Positions 15,656 to 59,402 of a stretch of 64,000 nt of DNA are shown in pieces. The position numbers were made by a program, and so were the translations under genes. The DNA comes from Candidatus Omnitrophota bacterium. Lineage in GTDB: Bacteria; Omnitrophota; Gorgyraeia; Zapsychrales; Zapsychraceae. Each line of letters begins with the position of its first letter. Position 1 is the first letter of the stretch. The DNA is taken from the NCBI GenBank assembly GCA_029261055.1, contig JAJDCA010000015.1, positions 83,998 through 147,997 on the forward strand, read 5' to 3'. The notes under the pieces were generated by a model, which was not told the origin of the DNA, made no database searches, and worked only from the letters and a program-made list of their open reading frames with translations.

Positions 15656-15725
15656 ATACCAAATCCATTAAATAATTGTACTATCTTTAGCAAGGATTTT
15701 GGTCATTATTTAATGGATTTGGTAT
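15656..15725. promoter_or_regulatory. Perfect 21-bp inverted repeat (ATACCAAATCCATTAAATAAT ... ATTATTTAATGGATTTGGTAT) with a 28-nt spacer, immediately upstream of the ECF sigma start codon in the divergent sigma/luxR region
   Basis: Seen in the sequence. The left arm starts 9 nt from the sigma ATG. Confidence 0.45.
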
Positions 15726-15836
15726 CATTATAGTCAATTTTCTGAAAATTGGAAAATTTTTGTAAGAAAAAGGTTAGTTTTGCGTCTTCCCATTAAGAGA
15801 TTGTCCAAAAACAACTTGGACAACTCCTAAACACAA

Positions 15837-21139: not shown

Positions 21140-21212
21140 TGGTGCAAAAATATTTTCACTTTGTAAGGAAATGCATTCTTGATCGACAAACTGGATAACT
21201 AATTGCTATATT

Positions 21213-38378: not shown

Positions 38379-38390
38379 AGGGGATTAATA

Positions 38391-40034: not shown

Positions 40035-40044
40035 GAGAAAGAAT

Positions 40045-44338: not shown

Positions 44339-47300
44339 AATAAGTATTAAACGCCCTGTGTTAGCCACGATGATGAATTTGTTGTTGATTCTCTTTGGAG
44401 TGGTTGGCTTATCCCGTCTTCCGGTGCGTGAGCTGCCGGATATTGACCCACCGATTGTCAATGTGCAAACGGTTTATCCAGGGGCCAGTGCCCAGGTTAT
44501 TGAAACTCAGGTGACTGAACCGTTGGAAGATGCTTTAACCAGTGTCGAGGGGATCAAAAAAATTACGAGTGAAAACCGGGAACAATTAAGTTCTATCACG
44601 ATTGAATTTAATTTATCCGAGGATGTGAACGTGGCGGCTCAGGATGTGAGGGATCGTGTTGCAAGAGTACGCGGGCGTTTACCTGATGATATTGACGAAC
44701 CCATTGTGTCAAAGCAAGACGCCGACGCGAGCCCGTCGATTTGGGTGGCGTTGTTTAGTGAACGATTTTCTACGCTTGAGCTTACGACGATTGCAGAAAA
44801 TTTATTTAAGGATCGTTTACAAACCGTTCCCGGTGTGAGTTCTGTTATTCTCGGTGGATCCAAACGTTTTGCTATTCGTATTCGGCTTGATTCCAAAAAG
44901 ATGGCAGCGCGTGGCCTTAGTGTGCTTGATGTAGACCGTGCCTTAACTGAGCAAAGTGTTGAGCTTCCCAGTGGACGTATTGAAAGTCTGCAACGTGAGC
45001 TGTCCATTGAAACGCGCGGACAGCTCAAAAATCCTGACGAATATAATAATCTTGTTATCCGACGTGAGGGCGATGATCTAGTCAGGCTTAAAGATATCGG
45101 TTTTGCTGAAATCGGTGTGGAGGACGAACGGTCTATAGCGCGTTATAACGGCAAACCTGCCGTCGGGATTGGGGTTATTAAGCAGTCTAAGGCCAATATT
45201 ATTGATGTGGCCACAGCACTCAAAGTTGAGCTCGAACGTATCCAGCCCATGATTCCAGAGGGGATTAATTATAATATTCCTTATGACGAATCGATTTATA
45301 TTGAGAAGTCTATTAAGGAAGTTTGGATCACTCTTGCGATAGCGTTTATTTTGGTTATTGGGGTAATCTATATTTTTCTGCACAATGTTCGCTCCACATT
45401 GATTCCGAGTATTACGATTCCTATTTCTATTATTGCCACGTTCGGCATTTTATATTTTTTCGGATATTCTATTAATATTGTGACCATGCTCGCGTTTGTT
45501 TTGGCGATCGGACTTGTGGTAGATGATGCGATTGTTGTTCTGGAAAATATTCACCGGCATATTGAAGAGGGCTTATCGCCGTTTCAGGCATCTTTGCTCG
45601 GGATGAAGGAAATCGGATTTGCTGTTATTGCGACAACGGTTGCCCTTGTGGCTGTATTTCTTCCCATGGCGTTTCAGACAAGTGATACCGGACGGTTATT
45701 TATTGAATTTGCGGTTGCGATTTCATTCAGTGTGATTATTTCGACATTTGTCGCGTTAACTCTTGCGCCGATGATGTGTGCTCGGGTTTTAAAACCTCAT
45801 CATGAAAATCAACGCCAATCATTTCTTTTGAAATTTGAACAATGGTTGTACCGCCGGCGTAAAGGTTATTTAAAAATGTTGGGTTTTACGTTTCGTCATA
45901 TGAGCATTGTGTTTGGTATTTGTGTTTTAGCCGTGGCGGGCGCGTTTTATTTCTACTTAAATTTGGAAAGTGAGTTTCTTCCCGAGGAAGATAAAGGGCG
46001 ATTGTTTTGTATTGTCCTGGCGCCTGAGGGATCAACCAGTGAATATACGGATCGCATGGTGCGAAAGATGGAAGCTATTATACAATCGACACCGGAAGTT
46101 GACGGGTTTTTTACAGCCGTGGCTTTGGCGCGCGGCGGTCCGGGGCAGGCTGCGCAAGGATTATCCTTTATTCGGTTAAAAGAAAAGCGAGACCGTCATG
46201 TACGGGATATTGTCGGCGGACCGACGGGTTTTCGCTCACAGTTCTTTACAACCATTGAAGGTTCATTGGTGATCCCGATTATTCCCAAAGCCATCGGCGG
46301 TGGTTTTTCTCAACCTTATCAGCTTGTCCTTCAGCATCAGGATTTACATGAATTAAATCGTATTGCTGAAGAGTTTAGTAATACTTTGCGTCAGGAAGGG
46401 TTTCTTTTAAATGTGCGTTCTACATTTGAATTAAATAAACCTGAATTACGCGTGCACATTAACCGTAACCGTGCGGCGGTTCTTGGTGTTTCGGTTCAGG
46501 ACATATCACGTGTTTTACAAATTCTTTTCGGTGGATTGGATTTGGCTAAAGTAAATTTAGAGGGGAAGGAATATGATGTTATTGTTCAGTTGGAACGTGC
46601 ATCACGTTTATCTCCGTCGGATTTGGAAAAGATTTATATTCGCAATAATAATGGACAATTGATTCAGTTGAATAATGTCATTGATTATGAAACAGGAGGC
46701 GGGCCTAGTGCGATCAATCACTTCAATCGTCTGCGTTCAGCCACGATTGAGGCCACACCGTTGGATATTCCATTGGGGACGGCGATAGAACGGACTGAGA
46801 AATTATTAAAGGAAAGCAATATCCAAGGGCTTCGATATGAATGGAATGGGGAGGCTTTGGATTTAAAAGAGTCTGGAAGCGAAACGGTCTTTGTCATCCT
46901 GCTTGCGATTTTGATTATTTACATGGTTTTGGCGGCCCAGTTTGAAAGTTTAAAAGATCCACTGGTGATTATGTTTACTCTTCCACTTGCGGTCTTCGGG
47001 GCTTTGGGTTCCTTATGGTTGTTGGCGTATGTGGACCGTATGGCTGTTTCGGGCGTTAGCTTTTTACCGCGTATTCCGGCCATGGGCATCAATCTGTTCA
47101 GTCAGATTGGAATTATTATGCTGATCGGTATTATTACAAAAAATGGTATTCTTTTGGTGGATTTTGCCAATCAGGAAATGGCAAAAGGACAAGATGCGAT
47201 GCGCGCTATGTTGGGTGCGGGTAAGATGCGTTTTCGTCCGATTCTTATGACGGCGTTTTCAACCATAGCAGGGATTTTACCGATTGCCATTGGTTTTGGG

Positions 47301-48875
47301 GCCGGCGCTGAAAGTCGTCGTCCGTTAGGGGTTGCCGCCGTTGGAGGTATTGCTTTAGGCACATTTTTAACCCTGTTTGTTGTTCCCGTGGTGTATGTGT
47401 TATTGAATAGAACAAGGAAAGACAAGCTGCGATTAAAAAAACAGACAGTGGCAGCATTATCTGTCATTACAATTTTACCGATGCTATTGACCGGATGTTC
47501 CCCAATTTTAGGAGAAGACTATGTCCGTCCTGATGTAACCTTACCGGTGGATTGGGAATACCGGAGGGAGTATGAAAACTGGAAAGCCGCTACGCCCATA
47601 GATCATCATACTAAAGGACAATGGTGGGAAATTTTTGAAGATGATACACTCAACTATTTACAAAAACAAGCTTTAACGCATAACCATAATTTAAAAAGTG
47701 CCATGGCAAGCGTGCGTCAAGCGCGTGCGCTGGCTCGGATGGATAAGGCTGGGTTTTATCCAACGATTGAAAGTAATCCTGCGTTTGAACGTTCCCGTAC
47801 AACCAAAAACAGTTTTACTTCAACCTCGGCAGGTATAAGTAGTTTTACTTCCGAGCGTTATGAAATTCCGTTTGATTTTAGTTACGAATTGGATTTGTGG
47901 GGGCGTGTTCAACGGGCCTTTGAAGCAGGTGTGGCTCGCGCTGAAGGGACATTGGCGCAATATTACACCGTTATGTTGACGTTAAATGCAGATGTGGCAC
48001 GTCATTATTTTGACTTACGCGAGTTAGAGAAAGAAGTCAAAATTATTGATGAGACCATTAAACTCAGAGAGTATGCCGTTAATGTGGTCGACGAACGCGT
48101 CCAAGGAGGATTAACCAGCGAGTTGGATTTCAATCGCGCTAAAACCGAATTAGCCAAAGTCAAAACGGAACGTATTGATGTGCTGCGCCGCCGGCTGGAA
48201 ACTGAAAATGCATTAGCGGTGTTATGCGGTCAGCTTCCATCGGAATTCTCTTTGGATTTTACAGCCCCGATTATTGATGTTCCGGAAATTCCATTATATA
48301 TCCCATCGGAATTACTTGAGCGACGTCCGGATATTGCCGAAGCAGAACGTAAAGTAGAAGAAGCCAATGCCCAAATCGGTGTCGCTGAGGGGGCTATGTT
48401 TCCTAGAATCAGTTTAACGGCGACGGGAGGTCTTAAGAGCATTGAGATTGATTCGCTATGGGATTTGGAAAGCCGATTTTGGTCGTTAGGGCCGAACATA
48501 TCTATTCCTTTATTTACCGGTGGTAGAGGCAGGGCCAATGTGTGGGCTGTCGAAGCTAAATATGATCAAACGGTTGAAGATTACCGCCAAACAGTTTTAA
48601 CCGCTATTGAAGAAGTTGAAACATCTTTATCTAATGTAAAAATGTTTGGCCAGCAAGGAGTGTCCCAGGAGGAAGTCCTAAAATCGTCCCGCCAAACCGC
48701 AGAACTATCTATCTTTCGTTATAAAGAAGGATTGGTTACATTTTTGGAAGTTATTGATTCTGAGCGCTCCCGATTAGATGCGGAATTGCAAGCTGCACGG
48801 ATATTGAATCAACAGTTGATAGCGACAGTTCACCTGATTAAAGCCCTCGGAGGCAGCTGGAAGGCTAGTCATTAA
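44325..48875 (+). CDS. RND permease (AcrB-like, residues 1 to about 1035) in frame with a TolC/OprM-like outer membrane factor lipoprotein (residues about 1035-1516). No stop codon separates the two modules.
   Basis: One 1516-codon ORF. The AcrB-like 12-TM architecture ends at ...VVYVLLNRTRKDKLR. Then comes a complete lipoprotein signal (RLKKQTVAALSVITILPMLLTGC), followed by two OMF repeat halves. A possible internal start (CTG at 47427) sits 5 nt after AAGGAAAG. Confidence 0.75.
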   Translation: MKLSEISIKRPVLATMMNLLLILFGVVGLSRLPVRELPDIDPPIVNVQTVYPGASAQVIETQVTEPLEDALTSVEGIKKITSENREQLSSITIEFNLSEDVNVAAQDVRDRVARVRGRLPDDIDEPIVSKQDADASPSIWVALFSERFSTLELTTIAENLFKDRLQTVPGVSSVILGGSKRFAIRIRLDSKKMAARGLSVLDVDRALTEQSVELPSGRIESLQRELSIETRGQLKNPDEYNNLVIRREGDDLVRLKDIGFAEIGVEDERSIARYNGKPAVGIGVIKQSKANIIDVATALKVELERIQPMIPEGINYNIPYDESIYIEKSIKEVWITLAIAFILVIGVIYIFLHNVRSTLIPSITIPISIIATFGILYFFGYSINIVTMLAFVLAIGLVVDDAIVVLENIHRHIEEGLSPFQASLLGMKEIGFAVIATTVALVAVFLPMAFQTSDTGRLFIEFAVAISFSVIISTFVALTLAPMMCARVLKPHHENQRQSFLLKFEQWLYRRRKGYLKMLGFTFRHMSIVFGICVLAVAGAFYFYLNLESEFLPEEDKGRLFCIVLAPEGSTSEYTDRMVRKMEAIIQSTPEVDGFFTAVALARGGPGQAAQGLSFIRLKEKRDRHVRDIVGGPTGFRSQFFTTIEGSLVIPIIPKAIGGGFSQPYQLVLQHQDLHELNRIAEEFSNTLRQEGFLLNVRSTFELNKPELRVHINRNRAAVLGVSVQDISRVLQILFGGLDLAKVNLEGKEYDVIVQLERASRLSPSDLEKIYIRNNNGQLIQLNNVIDYETGGGPSAINHFNRLRSATIEATPLDIPLGTAIERTEKLLKESNIQGLRYEWNGEALDLKESGSETVFVILLAILIIYMVLAAQFESLKDPLVIMFTLPLAVFGALGSLWLLAYVDRMAVSGVSFLPRIPAMGINLFSQIGIIMLIGIITKNGILLVDFANQEMAKGQDAMRAMLGAGKMRFRPILMTAFSTIAGILPIAIGFGAGAESRRPLGVAAVGGIALGTFLTLFVVPVVYVLLNRTRKDKLRLKKQTVAALSVITILPMLLTGCSPILGEDYVRPDVTLPVDWEYRREYENWKAATPIDHHTKGQWWEIFEDDTLNYLQKQALTHNHNLKSAMASVRQARALARMDKAGFYPTIESNPAFERSRTTKNSFTSTSAGISSFTSERYEIPFDFSYELDLWGRVQRAFEAGVARAEGTLAQYYTVMLTLNADVARHYFDLRELEKEVKIIDETIKLREYAVNVVDERVQGGLTSELDFNRAKTELAKVKTERIDVLRRRLETENALAVLCGQLPSEFSLDFTAPIIDVPEIPLYIPSELLERRPDIAEAERKVEEANAQIGVAEGAMFPRISLTATGGLKSIEIDSLWDLESRFWSLGPNISIPLFTGGRGRANVWAVEAKYDQTVEDYRQTVLTAIEEVETSLSNVKMFGQQGVSQEEVLKSSRQTAELSIFRYKEGLVTFLEVIDSERSRLDAELQAARILNQQLIATVHLIKALGGSWKASH

Positions 48876-49093
48876 CGAGAACGGAGCAGATAACATTAGT
48901 AAAGATTAGCAAACAACAGTCGCATTCCATTCCATTTTTACAAAAAAAATTGTAAGATTTCCCTCTCAATCCCGACTAACCTCTTAATGGAACGCATAAA
49001 CAAGATCTTGTTAGTATCTACATGTTTTATGCAGGTTGCAGAATAATTATTAATATTTATAATATATAACTTTATTGTCATGAAGGAGTTATT

Positions 49094-49447: not shown

Positions 49448-50293
49448 ATGTCGCAGACTAAAGAAGTTCAATTTTCAGATTTAGATTTATCTTTATGGGA
49501 AGCCTCCCGGGATACCATTCATCAGTATGCTAAATTGTTAGGCAAAATTCGAGCCGCGTTAACCCCAAAACAAAAACATTGGTGGAATGTTAGTTTGCGC
49601 GCATCAGCGGTAGGATTTACGACCACACCGATTGCTATTTTTGATCAAAACAAATCCATTGAATTAGAGTTAAATTGTGTGAAACATAAAATTGTGATTA
49701 GTTCATCTAATGGGGAAAAGCAGTGTATTGATCTTGAAGGACAGTCGATTAAGAAAATGTATGAAAATGTTTTATCCATTTTGGCCGATATGAAGGTGCA
49801 ACCAAAACTTGATGAAAGCTTATTTTCAGGTGAGGAAAATTTGCAATATGATCGCACACGCATTGAATCATTTTGGAAATCTTTCGCCCAGATAGATCTT
49901 ATTTTTAAAGAATTTAAAGGCGGGTTACGACAAGAAACAAGTCCTGTCCAGTTATGGCCGCATCATTTTGATTTAGCATTTTTATGGTTTTCAGGTAATC
50001 TTGTACCCGATCAAGATCCAAATAATGAAGAGTATGCGGATGAACAAATGAATTTTGGTTTTTCAACGGGGGATGAAAGTATTAATGAGCCATATTTTTA
50101 TATTACAGCCTATCCCTTGCCGGAACTCCTCCCTAAAATTGCATTACCTCAAGGCGCTTATTGGGAGACAAAAGCATTTAATGGGGCGATTCTTAAATAC
50201 AAAGAACTAACCCAATCAACTAACCCACGAAATACGCTCATCAATTTTCTAAAAGCAGTACAGGATGCGGGTTCAGAGTTTATGTTAAAGTAA
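49448..50293 (+). CDS. Conserved hypothetical protein (281 aa)
   Basis: ORF with an AGGAGA RBS. It contains a LWPHHFDLA motif. Function unknown. Confidence 0.5.
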   Translation: MSQTKEVQFSDLDLSLWEASRDTIHQYAKLLGKIRAALTPKQKHWWNVSLRASAVGFTTTPIAIFDQNKSIELELNCVKHKIVISSSNGEKQCIDLEGQSIKKMYENVLSILADMKVQPKLDESLFSGEENLQYDRTRIESFWKSFAQIDLIFKEFKGGLRQETSPVQLWPHHFDLAFLWFSGNLVPDQDPNNEEYADEQMNFGFSTGDESINEPYFYITAYPLPELLPKIALPQGAYWETKAFNGAILKYKELTQSTNPRNTLINFLKAVQDAGSEFMLK

Positions 50294-50421
50294 TACCAAT
50301 TCCATTAAATAATGACCATAATCTATTCGGCTTTTCTCGAACGTTTCTACGAGAATAGCCACTACCAAAAGGGGAATTATTTAATGGAATTGGTATAAAA
50401 AATCTTAAACAAAGGATAATT

Positions 50422-52392
50422 ATGAGCAAAGACACTAAAAAGATAGTTTGGCATAAAGCTCTTGAAAAAGATGAGTTTCCTGAAGGTCGAGTAAAATCAA
50501 TTACTTTGGGGCATGTAACCGTGGCCCTTACGCATTTTGAGGGAAAGTATGGGGCGCTTAATAATAAATGTCCTCATCAAGGTGGGCCTTTGGGTGAAGG
50601 GTCGATTGAGAATGGTCTTTTGCGATGTCCGTGGCATGGATGGGATTTTTGTCCGCATAGTGGAAATACACCGGGATATGATGATGGTGTTGATGCTTAT
50701 GCCGTCGAGGTGCGAGATGATGGTATTTATGTCGGTCTTGAAGAAGAAGCGCCGCATGTGACAACTGTTTCAGATGTGATGACCGAAACTATGACCAACT
50801 GGGGCGTTAAGCATGTTTTTGGAATTGTTGGGCATTCAAATTTAGGGTTGGCGGATGGATTGCGTATGCAGGCAGAAAAAGGAAATTTGAAGTTTTATGG
50901 CGTTCGTCATGAACTAGCCGCTGCATTTGCGGTATCGGCTTATGGAAAGTTGACAGGTCGTCCTGCGGCATGTCTTTCCATTGCAGGGCCGGGGGCAACG
51001 AATTTATTAACGGGTTTATGGGATGCCAATGTGGATCGTTCACCAGCGATTGCCTTAACTGGGCAAGTGGATACGCAAGTTGTAGGGGCTGGAGCTTTTC
51101 AGGAAGTTGATTTACAAGGGGCATTTGGAACAGTAGCGCAATGGGCGCAACCGGTTTTGCATTCGAGTAAACATGCCGAGTTGATGAATTTAGCCTGCAA
51201 GAGTTCTATTTTGAACCGAGGTGTTTCACATTTGATTTTTCCTGATAATGTTCAGCATATGCCAGCCCCTGAGGGAGAAACGGCCGGAGGCCCAGAGGGA
51301 AGAATTACTTCCGTGGCTATTCGTCCGCCGAAAGAATCTGTTGATAAAGCGGTCGCCTTATTATCAAAATCTGAGCGTCCAACGATTATTGTCGGACATG
51401 GTGCACGGTTTAATATGCCGGCGATTATTCAATTGGCCGAGAGCTTGAATTGTCCGGTGTTAACGACGTTTAAAGGCAAGGGATTGATCCCGGATAGTCA
51501 TCCGTTGGGTTGTGGTGTTTTAGGTAGAAGTGGAACGCCAATTGCCAGTTATTTTATGAATGAATCAGATTGTCTGTTAGTCTTTGGTTCCAGTTTCAGT
51601 AATCATACAGGAATCACGGATCACAAACCAACCATTCAAGTAGATTTTGATGCCATGACTTTAGGCAAGTTTCACAAAATTGATGTACCTGTCTGGGGAG
51701 AAATTGGAGAAACTGTCGAAGTTTTGCAAAACGAATTAAAAGGTAAAACAAAGACCAAAGACCGTCGTGAGGAAATTTCTGCGCGTTGGACCATTTGGCG
51801 CAAAGAAAAGAAAAGCCGGGAAGATGATGATTCTGGTAAGGGGATTAATTCCGCATCCATTTTTTCTGCCTTATCGAGGCATGTTTCTAAAGAGGCTATC
51901 ATGGCCGTTGATGTAGGGAATAATACTTATTCTTTTGGTCGATATTTTGAATGTGAAAACCAAGCTGTATTAATGTCTGGATATCTTGGTTCAATCGGGT
52001 TTTCCTTGCCGGCTGCCATGGGTGCCTGGGCGGCCACGCAAGAAGAGGATGCTCGATTCAAAGGAAGGCCGGTTGTGTCGATTTCCGGAGATGGTGGATT
52101 TGGGCAATGCATGGCGGATGTATCCACCGCCGTAAAATACAAAATGAATATTACGCATATTTTACTCAATAATCATGAATTAGGAAAAATCAGCAAAGAG
52201 CAGCGTGCCGCCAAATGGGATGTCTGGCAAACGTCGCTGGTGAATCCAAATTTTTCCGAGTATGTTACCTCTTATGGGGCATTAGGTATTCGCGTTGAGA
52301 AAAAGGAAGATTTGGATGACGCCATAACAAAGGCCTTGAATCATGAAGGCTTTAGTTTAGTCGAAATCATGTCGGATGCTTTATTAATGTAG
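50422..52392 (+). CDS. Fusion of an N-terminal Rieske [2Fe-2S] domain with a thiamine-diphosphate enzyme of the pyruvate oxidase / acetolactate synthase family
   Basis: Rieske ligand boxes CPHQGG and CPWHGW in the first 110 aa. Then the TPP-enzyme Pyr domain (GPGATNLLTGLWDA) and the TPP-binding motif GDGGFGQCMADV...N. Confidence 0.8.
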   Translation: MSKDTKKIVWHKALEKDEFPEGRVKSITLGHVTVALTHFEGKYGALNNKCPHQGGPLGEGSIENGLLRCPWHGWDFCPHSGNTPGYDDGVDAYAVEVRDDGIYVGLEEEAPHVTTVSDVMTETMTNWGVKHVFGIVGHSNLGLADGLRMQAEKGNLKFYGVRHELAAAFAVSAYGKLTGRPAACLSIAGPGATNLLTGLWDANVDRSPAIALTGQVDTQVVGAGAFQEVDLQGAFGTVAQWAQPVLHSSKHAELMNLACKSSILNRGVSHLIFPDNVQHMPAPEGETAGGPEGRITSVAIRPPKESVDKAVALLSKSERPTIIVGHGARFNMPAIIQLAESLNCPVLTTFKGKGLIPDSHPLGCGVLGRSGTPIASYFMNESDCLLVFGSSFSNHTGITDHKPTIQVDFDAMTLGKFHKIDVPVWGEIGETVEVLQNELKGKTKTKDRREEISARWTIWRKEKKSREDDDSGKGINSASIFSALSRHVSKEAIMAVDVGNNTYSFGRYFECENQAVLMSGYLGSIGFSLPAAMGAWAATQEEDARFKGRPVVSISGDGGFGQCMADVSTAVKYKMNITHILLNNHELGKISKEQRAAKWDVWQTSLVNPNFSEYVTSYGALGIRVEKKEDLDDAITKALNHEGFSLVEIMSDALLM

Positions 52393-52404
52393 AAGGAGGA
52401 TTCA

Positions 52405-52800
52405 ATGGGCACTTTAGGGGCATACTTTGCACCATTATTATTAATTAATGGCGTAGGATTGATTTTATTATCAACGGCATCGCGGTACATGAATGTTAAA
52501 GCCGAAATTCAAAAATTAACACCGGAAGATTGTGCTAAGAAAAAAGAAGAGTTAGGTCGTGAAATAAAGCGAGCTCACCTTTTTCATCGAGCCATGGTAG
52601 GACTTTATTTAAGCATCGGTTTTTTCTCTTCGTCAGCCTTAATCGGGACGTTAATAAAAAATTATCCCCAAGTGGCTGACTTTATATTAAACTCTTTTAC
52701 AATTGCTGGCGTGGCTTGCACTGTTTTTGCGTCATTTCAGTTGATTGTGGAGTCTTTTTTAACGATGGAAATTGTCAAGAAACATGCTGATAAAAAATAG
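52405..52800 (+). CDS. Small 3-TM membrane protein (DUF2721-like)
   Basis: 131 aa with an AGGAGG RBS. The hydropathy pattern is consistent with DUF2721. Confidence in the family assignment is low. Confidence 0.45.
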   Translation: MGTLGAYFAPLLLINGVGLILLSTASRYMNVKAEIQKLTPEDCAKKKEELGREIKRAHLFHRAMVGLYLSIGFFSSSALIGTLIKNYPQVADFILNSFTIAGVACTVFASFQLIVESFLTMEIVKKHADKK

Positions 52801-52811
52801 AAGGGGGAATA

Positions 52812-53162
52812 ATGGAGCATAATATGTTTAAAGGAATTTTTGAATCCGCTTCTGTGGTGATTGATATTGCAGGGGTTTCTATTTTGATTTGGGGGTTTGT
52901 TTTAGCTTTTATTAGTTTGATCAAATGGGAAATATCCAAATTTGTTGGCAAGAAAACCCTGGAAGGAGCTCAGAAAATTAGATGTGTTTTGGGAACTTAC
53001 ATTTTAATCGGGCTCGAATTTATGATTATTTCCGACATCATCCAAACCGTCATCAGTCATTCTAAAGATGATTTGATGTTTCTTGGCGTCATAGTGTTCT
53101 TAAGAACAACCATTGGATTTTTCCTGGGTAAAGAGTTGGAACAAATTAAAAGTGAAAAATAA
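52812..53162 (+). CDS. Small membrane protein (DUF1622-like)
   Basis: 116 aa. The GLEFMIISDIIQTV segment resembles DUF1622. Confidence 0.45.
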   Translation: MEHNMFKGIFESASVVIDIAGVSILIWGFVLAFISLIKWEISKFVGKKTLEGAQKIRCVLGTYILIGLEFMIISDIIQTVISHSKDDLMFLGVIVFLRTTIGFFLGKELEQIKSEK

Positions 53163-53173
53163 AAGGGGATGTT

Positions 53174-54784
53174 ATGAAAAAAATTAGTATTGCGAAATTT
53201 TCGGAGCTTGAAGATAAAAAACCGGCGTATGCTTTAGTCGCCAATGTTGATTTGGTCATTATTAAATATGATGACAATGTTTCTGTATTGTATGGACGGT
53301 GCGCCCATCGTGGGGCTTTGATGTCGGATGGAACAATTCAGGGTAATGATATTATTTGTGGTGTGCATGGATGGGATTACAAGTTTGATACAGGGGTGAG
53401 TGCGTACAATAATGAAGAGAAGCTTCCGAAATTTAATGCCTGGATTGAAAATGGTGATGTACTTGTGGATGAAGATGAAATTGCGGCTTGGGAAGAAAAG
53501 AATCCACAGGCTTACAATCGTGATGCCTATCAAGGGCTTTACAAAGATTTACACGGCGGGCCAGAAGAGCCGCATTACAAATTTATTCAGCAATTAGCCA
53601 AAGATGGATTGTCTAAGTTTGGTCATCATGGTCCGGCCTCGGCCATGGGGGTAGCTCGTCAAGAGTTGCCGCAATGGGATGATATTCAATTTTTGACGGC
53701 GCAGTTAGCTACCTTACCACAGCTGGATGATGTTGCAGTAGGATCTGAGATTGTTATTGGTCCTAAGGCGAAAAAGCCGTTAACATTGAAGATTCCATTG
53801 TTTGTTTCCGATATGAGTTTTGGAGCTTTATCTGAAGAGGCCAAGATAGCTTTAGCTAAAGGGGCTGAGATAGCCGGCACAGGTATTTGCAGTGGAGAAG
53901 GGGGGATGCTTCCCGAGGAACAAGCTGCCAATGCGCGTTATTTTTATGAATTAGCCTCAGGCCGGTTTGGGTATTCTATTGATAAAGTCAAAAAATGTCA
54001 GGCCTTTCATTTTAAAGGAGGGCAAGGAGCTAAGACGGGAACCGGCGGACATTTGCCAGGTTCAAAAGTGAAGGGAAAAATCGCCAAAGTTAGAGGGCTG
54101 AATGAAGGCGAAGCGGCTATTTCACCGCCACGGTTTCCTGACTGGGATGATATCAAATATCTTAAAGAGTTTGCCGTTATGATCAAAGAAGAAACCGGCG
54201 GTATTCCAGTAGGTTACAAATTGTCCGCACAGCATATTGAGAAAGATATTGATGCCGCATTGGATATCGGCTGTGATTACATTATTCTTGATGGTCGCGG
54301 TGGTGGGACAGGCGCCGCGCCATTGATTTTCCGCGACAATATTTCTGTACCGACCATTCCTGCTTTAGCCCGGGCCAGAAAACATTTAGACAAAACGGAT
54401 AAAAATGTTACCCTAATCATCACCGGAGGCTTGCGTGTTCCGGCTGATTTTGCCAAGGCATTAGCGTTAGGAGCGGATGCGATCGCGGTATCCAATTCGG
54501 CTATTCAAGCGATTGGATGTTTAGGGATGCGGGCGTGTCACACGAATAATTGTCCTGTGGGTATTGCGACACAAAAAGAAGATTTAAGAAAACGGATTAT
54601 GATTGACGAGTCAGCCAAACGGTTGGCTAATTTTTTTAATGCGTCCGTTGATTTAATGAAAGTTTTAGCCCGAGCCTGTGGGTATACCGATTTTAATCAG
54701 TTTAATAGTGAAAACTTGACAACGTTTAAAAGGGATATGGCTTATCTGACAGGGGTTAATTACGGTGGGGTTGTTTCTGTCTAA
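53174..54784 (+). CDS. Fusion of an N-terminal Rieske [2Fe-2S] domain with an FMN-binding glutamate-synthase-family (GltB domain-2-like) domain
   Basis: Rieske boxes CAHRGA and CGVHGW. GltS domain: ILDGRGGGTGAAPLIFRDNISVPT and a C-terminal Cys cluster (CHTNNCPVGIATQ). Confidence 0.8.
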   Translation: MKKISIAKFSELEDKKPAYALVANVDLVIIKYDDNVSVLYGRCAHRGALMSDGTIQGNDIICGVHGWDYKFDTGVSAYNNEEKLPKFNAWIENGDVLVDEDEIAAWEEKNPQAYNRDAYQGLYKDLHGGPEEPHYKFIQQLAKDGLSKFGHHGPASAMGVARQELPQWDDIQFLTAQLATLPQLDDVAVGSEIVIGPKAKKPLTLKIPLFVSDMSFGALSEEAKIALAKGAEIAGTGICSGEGGMLPEEQAANARYFYELASGRFGYSIDKVKKCQAFHFKGGQGAKTGTGGHLPGSKVKGKIAKVRGLNEGEAAISPPRFPDWDDIKYLKEFAVMIKEETGGIPVGYKLSAQHIEKDIDAALDIGCDYIILDGRGGGTGAAPLIFRDNISVPTIPALARARKHLDKTDKNVTLIITGGLRVPADFAKALALGADAIAVSNSAIQAIGCLGMRACHTNNCPVGIATQKEDLRKRIMIDESAKRLANFFNASVDLMKVLARACGYTDFNQFNSENLTTFKRDMAYLTGVNYGGVVSV

Positions 54785-54794
54785 AGGAGGAGGT

Positions 54795-56057
54795 ATGAAG
54801 GTAGAGATGAAAGAAAGAACGATTGTTGATCAGTATTTAAAAGTGCGTCGATTCAGTGAGAGTTTATCGGCACATTTAGAGCCTGAAGATTGTGTGATAC
54901 AAACCATGCCGGATATCAGTCCGACCAAATGGCATTTGGCCCATACGACTTGGTTGTTTGAAACTTTTATTCTCAAGGCAAAGGTGCCTAATTATCAACC
55001 CTTTCATCCACAGTATGAATATCTTTTTAATTCTTATTACAACAGCGTCGGAAGGCAGTTTTTTCGACCGCATCGCGGGCATTTGTCACGTCCAACAGTG
55101 GCTGAGGTCAATAAATATCGACAGGCCATTGATCAACGCATGGTAGAGCTTCTTCAAAATTGTAAAGAAGAGGATCAGCCTGAAGCGCGATCACTTGTTG
55201 AATTAGGATTGCATCATGAACAACAGCATCAAGAGTTGATGGTGACGGATATTAAACATGTTTTTTCCTGCAATCCATTGCATCCGGTGTATTGGAATTG
55301 CCCTGTGCTTTATGCCGATGCCACGCCGGCCTTAACCTTTAAGTCTTTTGAAAAAGATGTTTATTGGATAGGGCATGAAGGAGAAGGGTTTGGGTATGAC
55401 AATGAGTTTCCTCGGCATGAAAAGCTTGTTCATGGATTTAAAATCGGATCACGTTTGATTACCAATGCGGAGTACATGGAATTTATCAATGATGGGGGTT
55501 ACACAAAGTCTGAATTTTGGTTGTCTGATGCCTGGGCTATGGTCAATCAACAGCAATGGACCGCTCCATTGTATTGGCAGAAAGAGGGCGAAGAGTGGTT
55601 TTATTTCACTTTGAATGGTTATGTGAAGGTGAACCCCTACACGCCGGTGTGTCATGTTAGTTTTTATGAAGCTGATGCTTATGCCCGCTGGGCGGGTAAA
55701 CGACTTCCGACGGAAGAAGAATGGGAAATTGCGTTTCGGGATGATCCGATCGAAGGTAATTTTGTTGAATCGCAATGTTTTTCACCGCTTGCGTTAAATA
55801 GTCAGGATATCAAAAAAACACAGGCGTATGGAGATGTATGGGAGTGGACGGGATCACCGTATGTCGGTTATCCAGGTTACAAAGCGGCCGCAGGGGCCAT
55901 TGGGGAATACAATGGAAAGTTCATGAACAATCAAAGGGTATTAAAAGGCGGGTCGTGTGCCACTTCGCAATCGCATATGCGTCCAACCTATCGAAATTTT
56001 TTCTTCCCTGAGCAAAGATGGCAATTTATGGGAATCAGATTAGCAGAGGATTTATGA
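54795..56057 (+). CDS. egtB: EgtB-like sulfoxide synthase (DinB_2 plus FGE-sulfatase domains), the ergothioneine biosynthesis hercynine oxygenase
   Basis: N-terminal DinB-like metal site (WHLAHTTWLFETF). The C-terminal FGE-sulfatase fold reads RGGSCATSQSHMRPTYRNFF. 420 aa. AAGGAGGAGG RBS. Confidence 0.8.
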   Translation: MKVEMKERTIVDQYLKVRRFSESLSAHLEPEDCVIQTMPDISPTKWHLAHTTWLFETFILKAKVPNYQPFHPQYEYLFNSYYNSVGRQFFRPHRGHLSRPTVAEVNKYRQAIDQRMVELLQNCKEEDQPEARSLVELGLHHEQQHQELMVTDIKHVFSCNPLHPVYWNCPVLYADATPALTFKSFEKDVYWIGHEGEGFGYDNEFPRHEKLVHGFKIGSRLITNAEYMEFINDGGYTKSEFWLSDAWAMVNQQQWTAPLYWQKEGEEWFYFTLNGYVKVNPYTPVCHVSFYEADAYARWAGKRLPTEEEWEIAFRDDPIEGNFVESQCFSPLALNSQDIKKTQAYGDVWEWTGSPYVGYPGYKAAAGAIGEYNGKFMNNQRVLKGGSCATSQSHMRPTYRNFFFPEQRWQFMGIRLAEDL

Positions 56058-57025
56058 AACAGCCAAAAGAAGAAATAACTTTTCATGATTTATCACCGGA
56101 AAAAGAAATTTTTTTAAACGATGTTTGTGATGGTTTATCTAAACCACAAAAAACATTGCCATGTAAATATTTTTACAATGAAGTCGGCTCTAGATTATTC
56201 AACGCCATTTGTCGGACCGTTGAATATTACCCGACACGGACGGAACTCGGTATTATGAAGACGTACGCCGGTGAAATGGCTGATATGCTAAAGCCAGGCT
56301 GTTTGTTTATTGAATATGGCAGTGGCATCGGTGAAAAGGTTCGGCTTTTGTTGGAGCACCTAAAGGAACTTTCAGGATATGTGCCGATTGATATTTCTAA
56401 AGAGCATCTTAAAGAAGCGGCAGAAGATTTGAACCGCGATTATCCGGATCTTGAAGTTCTGGCGGTGTGCGCTGATTTTACAAAAGAATTTTCAATTCCG
56501 GCTCCACAAAAAAACGTTACACAGAAAGTTATTTATTTTCCAGGATCCACGATTGGAAATTTTCATAAAGAAGCAGCTTGTCATCTTTTGGAAAATATGG
56601 CAAATTCTCTGGAAAGCGGAGACGGTTTATTAATCGGTATTGATTTAAAGAAAAACGAAGAAATATTAATCCAGGCCTACAATGACAATTCAAGCTTTAC
56701 AGAAGCATTTAATCGTAATATCCTGTTACGGATTAATAAAGAATTAGACGGGGATTTTCAATTAGATTGGTTCGATCATGAAGCGTTTTATGAAGAATCA
56801 AAGGGGTGTGTTGAGATGCACTTAGTGAGCCGCCGGGAGCATAAAGTTACCATTCACGGTCAAACATTTCAGTTTTTGAAAGGCGAAAGCATTCACACGG
56901 AATCCTCCCATAAATACACGATTGACGAATTTTCCGCACTGGCAAAACAAGCCAATTTTAATCTGAAAAAATCCTGGATTGATGAAAATGATTTTTTTGG
57001 AGTTTTGTATTTGGAAGTTATCTAA
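56054..57025 (+). CDS. egtD: EgtD-like SAM-dependent L-histidine N-alpha-methyltransferase
   Basis: YFYNEVGSRLFNAICRTVEYYPTRTE, YVPIDIS and GSTIGNF motifs characteristic of Methyltransf_33 / EgtD. ATGA overlap with the egtB stop. Confidence 0.8.
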   Translation: MKQPKEEITFHDLSPEKEIFLNDVCDGLSKPQKTLPCKYFYNEVGSRLFNAICRTVEYYPTRTELGIMKTYAGEMADMLKPGCLFIEYGSGIGEKVRLLLEHLKELSGYVPIDISKEHLKEAAEDLNRDYPDLEVLAVCADFTKEFSIPAPQKNVTQKVIYFPGSTIGNFHKEAACHLLENMANSLESGDGLLIGIDLKKNEEILIQAYNDNSSFTEAFNRNILLRINKELDGDFQLDWFDHEAFYEESKGCVEMHLVSRREHKVTIHGQTFQFLKGESIHTESSHKYTIDEFSALAKQANFNLKKSWIDENDFFGVLYLEVI

Positions 57026-57089
57026 TAGATATCCTATTGTGATGAATTGTCAGACTCATTTATGACATAATTTTAATGAAGGGGTAGGT

Positions 57090-57698
57090 ATGAAATCATT
57101 AAATGATCTTTTTGAAAGAAATGCAGCTTGGGCGGAGGGGATTAAGGAAAAGGATCCTGAGTTTTTTGCGCAGTTATCTAAGCAGCAGGCTCCTGAATAT
57201 CTTTGGATAGGTTGTTCAGACAGCCGTGTTCCTGCAAACCAGATAGTCAATTTGCGGCCCGGTGAAATTTTTGTTCATCGTAATATTGCCAATGTTGTTG
57301 TCCCTACAGATTTGAATTGTCTTTCTGTCGTACAATACGCTGTTGAGGTGCTTAAGGTGAAGCATATTATTGTCTGTGGTCATTATGGATGTGGCGGCAT
57401 AAAGGCGGCTTTAGATGATCAAGATCATGGTCTTATGGATGGTTGGCTTCAGCACATTAAAGGTGTCCGTCAGATTCATGCCGAGAAATTAAAGGATTTG
57501 GAGCTTGATCAAAAGCATGATTTGCTCTGCGAGTTAAATGTCATAGAGCAGGTTAAAAATGTGTGTAATACAACGATTGTACAAAATGCCTGGAAAGCAG
57601 GATCAGAACTCTTCGTTCATGGATGGATTTACGACATTCAAAACGGGATTCTAAAAAATTTGGATGCAGACAATACATCAAATGGGGAGAAGAAATGA
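57090..57698 (+). CDS. Beta-class carbonic anhydrase
   Basis: Zinc ligands CSDSRV and HYGCGG. 202 aa. Confidence 0.85.
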   Translation: MKSLNDLFERNAAWAEGIKEKDPEFFAQLSKQQAPEYLWIGCSDSRVPANQIVNLRPGEIFVHRNIANVVVPTDLNCLSVVQYAVEVLKVKHIIVCGHYGCGGIKAALDDQDHGLMDGWLQHIKGVRQIHAEKLKDLELDQKHDLLCELNVIEQVKNVCNTTIVQNAWKAGSELFVHGWIYDIQNGILKNLDADNTSNGEKK

Positions 57699-58294
57699 GT
57701 GACGAACAAGAAGTAGATTATGGGCCGTTGAAGGCATTAATAGGTGTTTGGAAAGGGGACAAAGGGCTTGATGTTGCGCCGGAACCGGATGGGGCTGAAA
57801 ATAATCCTTATTACGAAACGATTATTTTTACAGCGGTTGGTGACGTAAGCAATGCGGAAACGCAAGTTTTATCCGTTGTGCGTTACCATCAGGTTGTTCA
57901 GCGTGTGTCCAATAATAAAGTGTTTCACGATCAAACAGGATATTGGATGTGGGATCCAAAGGCAGAAACAGTGATGCATTCTCTGGTTATTCCACGCGCT
58001 GTATGTGTGCTCGCCGGAGGGGAATACAAAGGACAAAAAGACGCAGAAGGAAATGTGGTCTTAGATGTTTCAGCTAAAATGAATGATGAGAATTGGGGCA
58101 TAATTCAATCTCCTTTCATGAAAAAGAATGCCTGCACGACTGAATTTCGCCAGCAAATGACAATATCCAACGAAGCATTATCCTATGCACAAACCATAGT
58201 GGTTGAAATTTATGGAAAAACTTTTGAACACACAGATCAAAATAAGTTGATACTTCAGAAATCATATGCCGAAAATATTACAACAACTTCCTGA
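57695..58294 (+). CDS. Nitrobindin / THAP4-like heme-binding beta-barrel protein (DUF1794-like)
   Basis: N-terminal GPLKALIGVWKGDKG motif. Start at the ATG at 57695, overlapping the carbonic anhydrase stop (ORF track start 57623). Confidence 0.5.
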   Translation: MSDEQEVDYGPLKALIGVWKGDKGLDVAPEPDGAENNPYYETIIFTAVGDVSNAETQVLSVVRYHQVVQRVSNNKVFHDQTGYWMWDPKAETVMHSLVIPRAVCVLAGGEYKGQKDAEGNVVLDVSAKMNDENWGIIQSPFMKKNACTTEFRQQMTISNEALSYAQTIVVEIYGKTFEHTDQNKLILQKSYAENITTTS

Positions 58295-59402
58295 AGATTT
58301 TCTGGAACCTGTCGGTTCCGGGGAATGTTCCATTTCGTCTCCGACGCAGCTTTCTGTTGAGAATTCGTTGGATGAAATATTTGTCTTTGCGCGTCAACAG
58401 CAGGCGTCAGATATTCATATTTCTGCGAATAATCCGATTATTTTACGGAAATTTTCTAAACTTATTCCAGTTACTGAAGCAAAAATTTCCAAAGAACGTA
58501 TTCAAAAAATTATTGAAGAGGGAGTCGGTCAAAAATTATTGTCTGAATTTCTTGAATGCGGCGATTTAGAATTTGTTCATTCGATTAATGGGGCAGGGCG
58601 GTATCGGGTTACGCTCATGAAGCAGCGCTTTGGATGGGATTTAACAGCCCGTGTCATTGCACAATCGATCCGTTCTTTTGAGGATTCCGGTATGCCAGCT
58701 TCTTGTCAAGGCCTTACGAAATGGGCGCAAGGACTTGTGTTAGTGACGGGTCCGGCAGGGTGTGGCAAGACAAGCTCGCTGGCAACGCTCGTCGAACTCA
58801 TCAATGCCACCCGTAATGAACACATTATTACTATTGAAAATCCTATTGAGATGATTTATGAATCTCAAAAGTGTCAGATCACTCAACGGCAAATTGATCG
58901 GCATACGCTCTCCCAGGAAAATGCTTTAAAGGCTGCTTTGCGTGAAGATCCGGATATTTTGGTCATTAGTGAATTGCGTGATTTAGCAAGTATTCAGCTA
59001 GCCGTCACTGCGGCTGAAACAGGTCATCTCGTATTCGGTACGATGAATACGAATAATGCATCACAAACAATTTCTCGTCTTATTGATTCTTTTCCTCCGG
59101 ACGAACAAGCCGTTATTCAGAATATGATTTCTGAATCTCTTAGAGGGGTTATTTGTCAGCAACTTATTCCTAAGAAAGATGGATCAGGGGTTGTTCCAGC
59201 TTTTGAAATTCTTGTTGTCAACATGGCGGTGGCTAATATGATCCGTCTAAAAAATATTCAAAACATTAACAATCTGATTGCCACTGGAAAGAATGACGGC
59301 ATGGTTCTCATTGATGCTTCATTAAGCGAGCTTGTCAACCAAGGCATCATCGATAAAGAAGAAGCCCGTCAAAGGGCCATTAATCCAAAATTATTTAGTT
59401 AG
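58266..59402 (+). CDS. PilT/PilU-family type IV pilus retraction ATPase (divergent paralogue)
   Basis: Walker A GPAGCGKTSS, Asp box and His box (TGHLVFGTMNTN). 378 aa. Confidence 0.75.
   Translation: MPKILQQLPEDFLEPVGSGECSISSPTQLSVENSLDEIFVFARQQQASDIHISANNPIILRKFSKLIPVTEAKISKERIQKIIEEGVGQKLLSEFLECGDLEFVHSINGAGRYRVTLMKQRFGWDLTARVIAQSIRSFEDSGMPASCQGLTKWAQGLVLVTGPAGCGKTSSLATLVELINATRNEHIITIENPIEMIYESQKCQITQRQIDRHTLSQENALKAALREDPDILVISELRDLASIQLAVTAAETGHLVFGTMNTNNASQTISRLIDSFPPDEQAVIQNMISESLRGVICQQLIPKKDGSGVVPAFEILVVNMAVANMIRLKNIQNINNLIATGKNDGMVLIDASLSELVNQGIIDKEEARQRAINPKLFS

Follow-up and report, generated by a model that had tools for sequence, protein, structure and literature searches.

What would place two enzymes with fused Rieske iron-sulfur domains directly ahead of genes for ergothioneine synthesis? 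The question is raised by a gene cluster in a 64,000-nt stretch of a Candidatus Omnitrophota genome (GenBank assembly GCA_029261055.1, contig JAJDCA010000015.1, positions 83,998 to 147,997 of the forward strand), hereafter the window, to which all coordinates refer. Eight genes are packed there on one strand. They encode a Rieske [2Fe-2S] domain fused to a thiamine diphosphate (TPP) enzyme of the pyruvate oxidase (POX) type (Rieske-TPP), two small membrane proteins (DUF2721 and DUF1622), a Rieske domain fused to the synthase domain of glutamate synthase, GltS (Rieske-GltS), the ergothioneine enzymes EgtB and EgtD, a beta-carbonic anhydrase, and a nitrobindin-like protein. A first interpretation made from the DNA letters alone (the sequence-only reading) saw in this combination a dedicated redox or electron-delivery arrangement around EgtB. 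In this study, the Rieske fusions were found to be frequent and to constitute a gene-neighbourhood module that is real, if flexible. The composite operon represents a minority version of this widespread module, and its value lies in the module rather than in any special ergothioneine chemistry. We consider it about an even chance that the region from ~48.95 to ~58.33 kb is one composite, probably stress-regulated operon, in which egtBD, the carbonic anhydrase gene and the nitrobindin gene are attached to a conserved double-Rieske core.

Distribution and neighbourhoods of the Rieske fusions

A protein search with Rieske-TPP gave 8000 matches, the best 120 of which were inspected. All 120 had the Rieske plus TPP-enzyme architecture, with 69-86% identity (100% for the protein's own entry) and 95-100% query coverage. 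When one genome per species was scanned, at least 578 loci were confirmed, the best 80 being 61-73% identical; Rieske-TPP therefore occurs in at least 578 species-level genomes from at least 12 phyla. Carriers of these best 80 were found among the Nitrospirales, Acidobacteriota, Gemmatimonadota, Poribacteria, Myxococcota, Planctomycetota, Nitrospinaceae, Deinococcota, Bacteroidota (Rhodothermales), Spirochaetales, Actinomycetota and cyanobacteria, and among the gammaproteobacterial sulfur oxidisers Parabeggiatoa and Thiodiazotropha. The sequence-only reading had regarded both fusions as non-standard. They are not rare, being abundant and strongly conserved architectures, but they are indeed uncharacterised; a full-text search of the literature found no paper mentioning either fusion or DUF5996.

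Neighbourhoods were tabulated by tblastn and by clustering of all open reading frames (ORFs) at 79 genome loci, 48 of which had at least 5 kb of sequence on both sides. This search of architectures and neighbourhoods, which the sequence-only reading had proposed, revealed a Rieske-GltS homologue (62-74% identical) near Rieske-TPP at 35 of the 79 loci and at 22 of the 48 fully flanked ones (46%). The two genes lay on the same strand in 34 of these 35 cases, with Rieske-GltS mostly immediately upstream. The third conserved partner, the DUF5996 protein, was encoded next to Rieske-TPP or Rieske-GltS at 28 of the 79 loci, and beside Rieske-TPP on the same strand at 18 of the 48; seen from the DUF5996 side, two of three contexts had a Rieske-GltS or Rieske-TPP neighbour. 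In a Rieske-GltS-centred survey of metagenomes, which covered 80 of 574 loci, Rieske-TPP was present at 14 loci and DUF5996 at 19 by tblastn (13 by ORF clustering), and a Na+/H+-exchanger-family protein was encoded directly upstream at 19.

The small membrane proteins do go together with the Rieske enzymes, as they recur in the modules of several lineages. DUF2721 homologues were found in the module clusters of loci L036, L077, L082 and L090-L092, and DUF1622 homologues in those of L015, L020, L082, L089, L090, L094, L146, L149 and the P0004 contig; one or the other accompanies the module in Nitrospirales, Thiodiazotropha, Cyclobacteriaceae and the sister lineages. Among relatives with sufficient flanking sequence, the closest (L082, Rieske-TPP 85% identical) has the order TPP-DUF2721-DUF1622-GltS followed by unrelated genes, without egtBD, carbonic anhydrase or nitrobindin. 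Another membrane protein, a fusion of a ferric-reductase transmembrane (TM) domain with a C-terminal Rieske domain, is encoded at 8 of the 80 Rieske-GltS-centred metagenome loci (L155 and seven others) and at 7 of 80 Rieske-TPP-centred loci (L008, L015, L034, L053, L059, L076 and L077). It usually occurs with a 266-aa protein of no family and a 91-aa small membrane protein, forming "triple-Rieske" clusters. The cultured Engelhardtia mirabilis Pla133 (L076) has GltS, TPP, a small TM protein and ferric-reductase-Rieske in one cluster. The Rieske domain of the ferric-reductase fusion is 30% identical to that of Rieske-TPP, and the two have the motif C-x-H-Q-x-GPLGEG in common.

Some neighbourhoods contain further enzymes. 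At L085/L086 (P0209 context), a gene for a BrxC/YtxJ-type monothiol redoxin (PF11009) lies between Rieske-TPP and DUF5996. In four Poribacteria loci (L012, L014, L018 and L030), Rieske-TPP has no GltS neighbour and follows genes for a threonine-dehydratase-like pyridoxal phosphate (PLP) enzyme and a class-III aminotransferase; a membrane-anchored protein with an FGE-sulfatase domain is encoded a few kilobases downstream.

An AlphaFold2 model of the DUF5996 protein (pLDDT 94) showed an alpha+beta fold of two lobes, in which His, Asp, Glu and Tyr residues are conserved, and Foldseek found no match for it in the PDB. DUF5996 was considered as the missing C-S lyase of the ergothioneine pathway and rejected, since it accompanies the module at many loci without egtBD.

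Sequence features of the Rieske enzymes

An alignment of 18 Rieske-TPP homologues from different phyla showed 78% mean column identity. Invariant were the Rieske ligands (CPH...CPWH), the catalytic Glu of the RHE motif (E164), and the GDGG...NN TPP motif, including G556-D557-G558 and N584. The closest solved structure is that of E. coli PoxB (3EY9/3EYA, E = 1.6e-65), followed by lactobacillal pyruvate oxidase (E = 1e-54); the protein is presumably also a flavoenzyme. Its alignment stops at residue 526 of the 572 of PoxB, and the C-terminal lipid/membrane-binding peptide is absent. All 56 TPP models that match Rieske-TPP score below their cut-offs, the best equivalog model, NF006377, giving 379 bits against a cut-off of 742.

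Rieske-GltS matches the glutamate synthase domain PF01645 with 303 bits and aligns with the large chains of glutamate synthase (7MFM, E = 1.1e-35). It keeps the three [3Fe-4S] cysteines, GCLGMRACHTNNCPVG aligning to the GltS motif GCVMMRACHLDTCPVG, as well as the QGAK..GG..LPG motif of the flavin mononucleotide (FMN) site and SGEGG. The cysteines and the FMN-site motif are near-invariant across 37 homologues, and the Rieske ligands (CAH...CGVH) are at least 90% conserved. The protein lacks the glutamine amidotransferase, central and GXGXG domains, none of which is encoded elsewhere in the operon, and scores 143 bits with NF008730, the cut-off of which is 1047.

The Rieske domains (PF00355, 57 bits in Rieske-TPP and 46 bits in Rieske-GltS) are 26% identical to each other over 65 residues; a recent duplication as their origin was rejected on account of this low identity. 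Both enzymes are placed by sequence comparison in known superfamilies while failing the equivalog tests, whereas EgtB, EgtD and the carbonic anhydrase are ordinary family members. The two Rieske enzymes carry a fusion and motifs found in no characterised member, and DUF5996 is without a solved structural relative.

Extent and organisation of the operon

Genes were assigned from the ORF list of the window with Pfam and NCBIfam at curated cut-offs. The gene content, domain assignments and tight packing given by the sequence-only reading were borne out, every domain call of the eight genes being confirmed by Pfam (Table 1). Three start codons were corrected, as judged by Shine-Dalgarno sequences and database gene calls. 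EgtB (420 aa) starts at ATG 54795, 10 nt past the Rieske-GltS stop, and is preceded by a AAGGAGGAGG site. EgtD starts at ATG 56054 and nitrobindin at ATG 57695, in ATGA overlaps with the stops of EgtB and the carbonic anhydrase, respectively; by this overlap, the nitrobindin gene is predicted to be translationally coupled to the carbonic anhydrase gene. The spacings, previously put at 13 nt or less, or overlaps, except for one gap of 65 nt, became 12, 11, 11, 10, -4, 64 and -4 nt. A GGAGG-like ribosome-binding site precedes each of the eight starts.

The sequence-only reading had the cluster run from 50422 to 58294; its 3' end plausibly stands, and its 5' end probably lies further upstream. 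A terminator-like hairpin directly behind the nitrobindin stop probably marks the 3' end of the unit. The PilT family match of the following ORF does not begin before residue 35; pilT thus probably starts near 58368 after a spacer of ~70 nt, and the unit plausibly ends at 58294. At the 5' end, the gene of the conserved partner DUF5996 lies upstream of Rieske-TPP. Ahead of it is the small orf49094, which matched no Pfam family even at E<=1 and is absent from the sister loci, making its membership uncertain. The unit probably starts at the ECF-sigma-type promoter-like motif (48950-48977), extends from ~48.95 to ~58.33 kb and includes both orf49094 and DUF5996.

GC content, GC content at third codon positions (GC3) and skew are uniform along the operon, and a recent horizontal transfer of the egtBD-carbonic anhydrase-nitrobindin part finds no support in composition. 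The window as a whole has 40% GC and a GC skew of ~+0.2 throughout. Among the 34 ORFs of at least 150 aa before 50.4 kb, 33 are on the + strand, which also carries every annotated gene beyond that point. This very strong strand bias makes co-orientation weaker evidence for operons. A search for riboswitches and leader RNAs with Rfam at E<=1 gave chance-level matches only.

Table 1. Features of the operon, its putative regulators and a paralogous gene group in the window
Feature	Positions	Strand	Basis and remarks
Anti-sigma factor, 91 aa	14800-15075	-	VHLIMCRMC (HxxxCxxC); beside the ECF sigma gene
ECF sigma factor	15060-15647	-	Region 2 and 4 domains present; orthologous to the sister-lineage sigma factor (59% identity)
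Triad: GltS-like FMN protein, acetolactate synthase (ALS)-like TPP enzyme, aldehyde dehydrogenase	36780-41439	+	No Rieske domains
ECF-sigma-type promoter-like motif, TTGTAAG-N16-CGACT	48950-48977	+	Intergenic; after the AcrB-outer-membrane-factor gene, upstream of orf49094, DUF5996 and Rieske-TPP
orf49094, 110 aa	49094-49426	+	TTG start, GAAGGAG ribosome-binding site; possibly first gene of the unit
DUF5996 protein, 281 aa	49448-50293	+	PF19459, 198.8 bits; third conserved module partner
Dispersed palindromic repeat, 21-bp perfect arms	50293-50396	.	In the 128-nt spacer between DUF5996 and Rieske-TPP
Eight-gene cluster	50422-58294	+	ORF coordinates confirmed
Rieske-TPP: Rieske [2Fe-2S] + pyruvate-oxidase/PoxB-like TPP enzyme, 656 aa	50422-52392	+	Pfam Rieske, TPP_enzyme_N/M/C
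DUF2721 small membrane protein, 131 aa	52405-52800	+	PF11026; hydropathy, 2-3 hydrophobic segments
DUF1622 small membrane protein, 116 aa	52812-53162	+	PF07784; hydropathy, ~3 hydrophobic segments
Rieske-GltS: Rieske [2Fe-2S] + glutamate-synthase FMN/[3Fe-4S] synthase domain, 536 aa	53174-54784	+	Pfam Rieske, Glu_synthase
EgtB, type II (cysteine-dependent) hercynine sulfoxide synthase	54795-56057	+	FGE-sulfatase, DinB_2; TIGR03440
EgtD, histidine N-alpha-methyltransferase	56054-57025	+	Methyltransf_33; TIGR03438, 384 bits (cut-off 291)
Can-type beta-carbonic anhydrase	57090-57698	+	Pro_CA; NF007756, 273 bits (cut-off 251)
Nitrobindin-like (THAP4 heme-binding beta-barrel) protein	57695-58294	+	PF08768, 82.8 bits (gathering 25)
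Terminator-like hairpin, 13-pair stem	58297-58326	+	Terminator scan; immediately 3' of the nitrobindin stop

A candidate promoter and sigma factor

The motif TTGTAAG-N16-CGWCT, which resembles promoters of extracytoplasmic function (ECF) sigma factors, has two exact matches in the window, one at 48950-48977 (+) upstream of the operon and one at 15760-15787 (+), divergent from an ECF sigma gene. With at most one mismatch, it occurs five times, against 0.31 expected, a significant excess. In the sister lineage (L090-L093, 86% identical), genes for an ECF sigma factor and a 90-aa anti-sigma factor with an HxxxCxxC motif lie divergent from DUF5996, which is followed after a 20-nt gap by Rieske-TPP-DUF2721-DUF1622. 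The intergenic region between sigma factor and DUF5996 contains the exact motif in L090, L092 and L093; 170 other loci have no copy of it. The window encodes the orthologous sigma and anti-sigma pair. Its anti-sigma factor matches zf-HC2 weakly (E = 0.011), and the HxxxCxxC motif is present in both the window and L090. Regulons of ECF sigma factors with zinc anti-sigma factors are often tied to thiol or oxidative stress. We infer that the operon may be co-transcribed and belong to such a regulon. In other metagenome loci, the ECF sigma factors encoded close to Rieske-GltS share only 24-28% identity with that of the window, which confines this proposal to the window lineage and its sister.

The spacer between DUF5996 and Rieske-TPP, which measures 128 nt in the window against 20 nt in the sister lineage, holds a palindromic element with a fold free energy of -46.2 kcal/mol (z = -8.4). 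Its arms (20-21 bp, TACCAATTCCATTAAATAAT) recur at 15657-15724, directly upstream of the ECF sigma gene. The element looks like an inserted dispersed repeat; a role as terminator was rejected, since it lacks a downstream U-run on both strands. A rearrangement that parted the sigma gene from the operon might be marked by the two copies. The motif at 15760-15787 also precedes a gene for a 126-aa LuxR/GerE-type regulator (15837-16217, +), and a one-mismatch copy at 21161-21188 (+) precedes a GH15 glycoside-hydrolase gene at 21387. These copies suggest a small regulon.

The ergothioneine, carbonic anhydrase and nitrobindin genes

EgtB scores 566 bits with TIGR03440 (cut-off 360), and the SenA and OvoA models remain below their cut-offs. 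It is ~60% identical to the EgtB of Chloracidobacterium thermophilum (8QF6/6QKI/6O6L, E = 8.7e-148), a type II enzyme, and should thus use cysteine directly, needing neither EgtA nor EgtC. EgtD resembles the enzyme of Mycobacterium smegmatis (4PIM, E = 4e-54). The assignments of the sequence-only reading withstood inspection of the active sites: EgtB keeps the His motifs KWHLxHT and HHEQQHQEL and the Tyr pair of FNSYY (NSYY), and EgtD keeps the equivalents of the substrate-binding residues Y56, N166, Y206, E282 and S284 (M. smegmatis numbering). Both are bona fide members of their families. No EgtE or other PLP-dependent C-S lyase (Aminotran_5 or similar) was found among the window ORFs of at least 150 aa, in agreement with what had been noted before.

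The egtBD genes are not beside the module at 77 of the 79 genome loci and 79 of the 80 metagenome loci. The closest EgtB relatives (67% identity) are encoded in plain egtB-egtD pairs in unrelated contexts, with no Rieske neighbours. Together with the absence of egtBD from the L082 module, this indicates that egtBD is an autonomous cassette. A Thiodiazotropha genome (L036) carries GltS-TPP-Na+/H+ exchanger-DUF2721-DUF5996-EgtB-EgtD tightly packed on one strand, and GltS-EgtB-EgtD is the order on a related contig from a metagenome (L131). A Gemmatimonadales genome (L057) has egtB-egtD in divergent orientation to GltS-TPP-DUF5996. EgtB is 47-49% identical among the three lineages, compared with ~70% for the module enzymes, which argues for independent recruitment of egtBD.

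The carbonic anhydrase is close to E. coli Can (1I6O, E = 6e-74) and has the CSDSR and HYGCGG motifs with a full zinc site. The nitrobindin-like protein scores 115.9 with the NCBIfam model heme_bind_FMP, below the cut-off of 150, and has no solved relative detectable by sequence. A 70%-identical nitrobindin is encoded between Rieske-GltS and Rieske-TPP in Candidatus Parabeggiatoa (L003), and a 36%-identical homologue beside Rieske-GltS at L097.

A non-Rieske paralogous triad and other genes of the window

A second GltS-type and TPP pairing lies upstream in the window (Table 1). Its GltS-like FMN protein (532 aa) is 32% identical to Rieske-GltS, and its ALS-like TPP enzyme (PRK08322, 927 bits) is 27% identical to Rieske-TPP. 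The aldehyde dehydrogenase of this triad is matched best by the models for lactaldehyde, sulfoacetaldehyde and phosphonoacetaldehyde dehydrogenases, none of which reaches its cut-off. A gene for a TauE/SafE sulfite exporter lies at 31175-32038, and a sulfonate-related or 2-oxoglutarate-bypass pathway is possible for the triad. On the P0004 contig (Rieske-TPP relative 84% identical), genes for a plain TPP enzyme and an aldehyde dehydrogenase directly precede Rieske-GltS-DUF1622-Rieske-TPP. This repeated pairing of GltS-type and TPP enzymes argues for a common 2-oxoacid intermediate.

Elsewhere in the window, a single 1516-aa ORF (44325-48875, +) joins a complete AcrB-type resistance-nodulation-division (RND) pump (PF00873, residues 4-1027) and a TolC-like outer-membrane factor (PF02321, to residue 1509). 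It is topologically unusual for one polypeptide to combine a pump of the inner membrane with a channel of the outer membrane. Genes for a TetR regulator (42653-43228) and an HlyD/MFP protein (43241-44338) lie upstream of it. A 1131-aa fusion of a major facilitator superfamily (MFS) transporter, an acyltransferase and an AMP-binding enzyme (3231-6626, +) looks like an LplT-Aas-type system for lysophospholipid recycling. An 872-aa ORF at 18-2636 (+) belongs to no Pfam family.

Proposed function and alternative explanations

In the explanation that we prefer, DUF5996, Rieske-TPP, DUF2721, DUF1622 and Rieske-GltS would form the core module, to which the egtB-egtD cassette, the Can-type carbonic anhydrase and nitrobindin would have been joined in the window lineage. 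The cassette would form hercynylcysteine sulfoxide from histidine, S-adenosylmethionine, cysteine and O2, and an unlinked C-S lyase would complete ergothioneine; the Rieske domains would not serve EgtB. At its FMN site, the GltS-like enzyme would convert an amino acid to the corresponding 2-oxoacid or back, and the POX-like enzyme would carry out the oxidative decarboxylation of a 2-oxoacid. The fused Rieske cluster of each enzyme may be a built-in one-electron exit or entry wire between the flavin site and a shared partner, most likely a membrane component (DUF1622/DUF2721 here, the ferric-reductase-Rieske cytochrome in other lineages). As for the substrates and the direction of electron flow, we infer, with somewhat less than even confidence within the overall explanation, that both Rieske enzymes are dehydrogenases acting on consecutive steps and passing electrons to the membrane partner. 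An amino acid would be converted to a 2-oxoacid and NH3 at the FMN/[3Fe-4S] enzyme, and the 2-oxoacid to a shortened acid and CO2 at the TPP enzyme, which would also bind flavin adenine dinucleotide (FAD). Support for such consecutive dehydrogenases comes from the ferric-reductase-Rieske, DUF1622, DUF2721 and Na+/H+-exchanger neighbours, from the frequent occurrence of each enzyme alone, and from the triad. The links to ergothioneine, nitrobindin and an ECF-sigma/zinc-anti-sigma promoter point to a common role and no common reaction; they suggest that egtBD and the module are loosely connected, probably through redox or thiol stress.

Several observations weigh against this explanation. The 64-nt gap between egtD and the carbonic anhydrase gene and the palindromic element could split the region into separate transcription units. 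Scans for sigma-70 promoters (33 against 28.7±5.4) and intrinsic terminators (14 against 11.1±3.2) performed no better on the window than on shuffled sequence, and for this reason they were not used to delimit transcription units, apart from the hairpin at 58297. The ECF sigma gene is 34 kb away from the operon, and few sequences underlie the promoter motif. The Rieske pair is not obligate, either enzyme often being found alone (at about half of the TPP loci and the majority of GltS loci), and a carbonic anhydrase homologue was found near the module in 0 of 160 other loci. The active sites have also changed. Phe465 of PoxB, presumably the electron relay between TPP and FAD, is replaced in the Rieske-TPP family by an invariant Lys (K589) inside the invariant GKISKEQ, and Glu975 and Gln978 of GltS are replaced in the Rieske-GltS family by invariant Thr and His. 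The chemistry may thus differ from that of both namesakes, and the substrates need be neither pyruvate nor glutamate.

The sequence-only reading took the Rieske enzymes for a dedicated redox or electron-delivery system of EgtB or of a modified ergothioneine pathway, with the small membrane proteins anchoring the complex. The tight same-strand packing with coupled starts would fit this, as would the direct adjacency of egtBD and the module in two further lineages; it is opposed by the separation of egtBD from the module at nearly all surveyed loci and in the closest relative, and by the lack of Rieske neighbours around the closest EgtB relatives. EgtB itself is an ordinary type II enzyme. Sulfoxide synthases of the EgtB type balance the four-electron reduction of O2 by oxidation of their substrates and need no external electron donor, and the C. 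thermophilum enzyme works in vitro without a reductase. Electron delivery to EgtB thus has no mechanistic basis, and we judge it highly improbable. What stands of the earlier idea is some link to ergothioneine genes, as seen in the adjacencies of L036/L131 and L057; egtBD, carbonic anhydrase and nitrobindin do not together form a conserved part of the module. Another alternative is chance juxtaposition, in which three unrelated units (Rieske-TPP to Rieske-GltS, egtBD, and carbonic anhydrase-nitrobindin) merely lie head-to-tail in a genome with nearly all genes on one strand. In its favour, nearly all window ORFs of at least 150 aa are on the + strand, which makes co-orientation little informative; egtBD, as an autonomous cassette, occurs in many contexts; the carbonic anhydrase is never with the module elsewhere; and the closest relative lacks the downstream genes. 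However, the 10-nt spacer between Rieske-GltS and egtB, with its ribosome-binding site, leaves no room for an intergenic promoter, and nitrobindin, DUF5996, DUF1622 and DUF2721 are all found again with the module at other loci. Besides the window, immediate egtBD adjacency was seen twice, with divergent EgtB, where an estimated ~0.04 events are expected by chance in 79 loci. The association is therefore not pure chance, and we regard chance juxtaposition of the three units as unlikely.

In the main alternative mechanism, the two Rieske enzymes would form a closed couple. The POX-like enzyme would oxidise pyruvate to an acyl product and CO2, electrons would pass from Rieske cluster to Rieske cluster, and the GltS-like enzyme would reductively aminate 2-oxoglutarate with free NH3, giving a glutamate synthase independent of NAD(P)H and ferredoxin. 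The couple would recycle the pyruvate and ammonia that the C-S lyase reaction yields, and the carbonic anhydrase would handle the CO2. Consistent with this are the same-strand neighbourhood of the enzymes in 46% of fully flanked loci, the retention of the synthase-site motifs and the [3Fe-4S] entry cluster without the glutaminase domain, the presence of a carbonic anhydrase in the operon, and, in Poribacteria, a PLP-dependent beta-eliminating (PALP) enzyme and an aminotransferase directly upstream of Rieske-TPP. Yet each enzyme is frequently alone, the catalytic residues 975 and 978 of GltS are changed, the carbonic anhydrase does not recur with the module, and the recurring ferric-reductase-Rieske partner suggests that electrons exit to the membrane; such a closed couple seems rather unlikely. 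A wider version, of which we are distinctly doubtful, would see an oxygen-tolerant, self-contained redox couple in which decarboxylation of a 2-oxoacid such as pyruvate powers reductive amination, or in which amino-acid oxidation in the reverse direction feeds a membrane cytochrome. Electrons would move through the two Rieske clusters, and NAD(P)H, ferredoxin, lipoate and coenzyme A (CoA) would play no part. DUF5996 would be a third catalytic or assembly component, and ergothioneine would be coupled through the pyruvate and NH3 from the C-S lyase. If true, many marine phyla and symbionts would possess a stress-induced route around central 2-oxoacid/glutamate metabolism.

POX/ALS-type TPP enzymes and glutamate-synthase FMN domains, two very large superfamilies, have abundant Rieske-fused members that are ~70% identical across at least 12 phyla; a function that is important and under tight constraint is the usual reason for conservation of this degree. 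Among the carriers are symbionts of sponges and lucinid clams, large sulfur bacteria, Nitrospirales, Planctomycetes and cyanobacteria. Should the pair be a redox system of 2-oxoacids and amino acids that is independent of pyridine nucleotides and tied to redox stress and low-molecular-weight thiols, it would be a new node of central metabolism and would explain why ergothioneine genes have repeatedly been drawn in. The question is directly testable in the cultured carriers Engelhardtia mirabilis Pla133, Xenococcus sp. PCC 7305 and Leptothoe kymatousa.

Comparison with known systems

With E. coli PoxB and Lactobacillus pyruvate oxidase, Rieske-TPP shares the three-domain TPP fold, the catalytic Glu and the diphosphate-binding motif, and by analogy, oxidative decarboxylation with electron exit through a flavin would carry over. 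It differs from PoxB in its additional N-terminal Rieske domain, the missing lipid-binding tail, the replacement of Phe465 by Lys, and scores that fall well short of the equivalog cut-offs. With pyruvate:ferredoxin oxidoreductase (PFOR), it has in common the principle that a TPP enzyme passes single electrons to an iron-sulfur cluster; however, PFOR belongs to another TPP lineage and is CoA-dependent with oxygen-sensitive [4Fe-4S] clusters, whereas Rieske-TPP combines a POX scaffold with a Rieske cluster. The fused domains themselves are small Rieske domains of the NirD/ferredoxin type. Similarly, Rieske-GltS has the FMN/[3Fe-4S] synthase domain and motifs of the large subunit of ferredoxin- and NADPH-dependent glutamate synthases (GltB domain 2), but lacks the other domains of that subunit and two of its catalytic residues, and falls far short of the equivalog cut-off. 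The fused Rieske domain takes the place at which electrons would otherwise arrive from ferredoxin or the beta subunit.

The ferric-reductase-Rieske protein of other module clusters has the Ferric_reduct TM domain of the membrane cytochromes MsrQ/YedZ and NOX/STEAP. It is not encoded in the window, where DUF2721 and DUF1622 are the sole membrane proteins of the unit. The ergothioneine genes match the two-gene type II pathway of the C. thermophilum kind: EgtB keeps the Tyr-Tyr pair, EgtD retains its substrate-binding residues, and the 4-nt overlap of the two genes is shared with other egtBD pairs; only the genomic context is unusual, with no egtE in the window. Cyanobacteria reportedly possess a bypass made up of 2-oxoglutarate decarboxylase and succinic-semialdehyde dehydrogenase. 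The order of an ALS-like TPP enzyme and an aldehyde dehydrogenase is the same in the triad (38391-41439), where it follows a GltS-like gene, and this bypass is the source of our analogy of amino acid, 2-oxoacid and shortened acid for the Rieske pair. Unlike the cyanobacterial enzymes, the Rieske pair would accomplish decarboxylation and oxidation in one POX-type step, with the electrons passing to an iron-sulfur cluster rather than to NAD(P)+.

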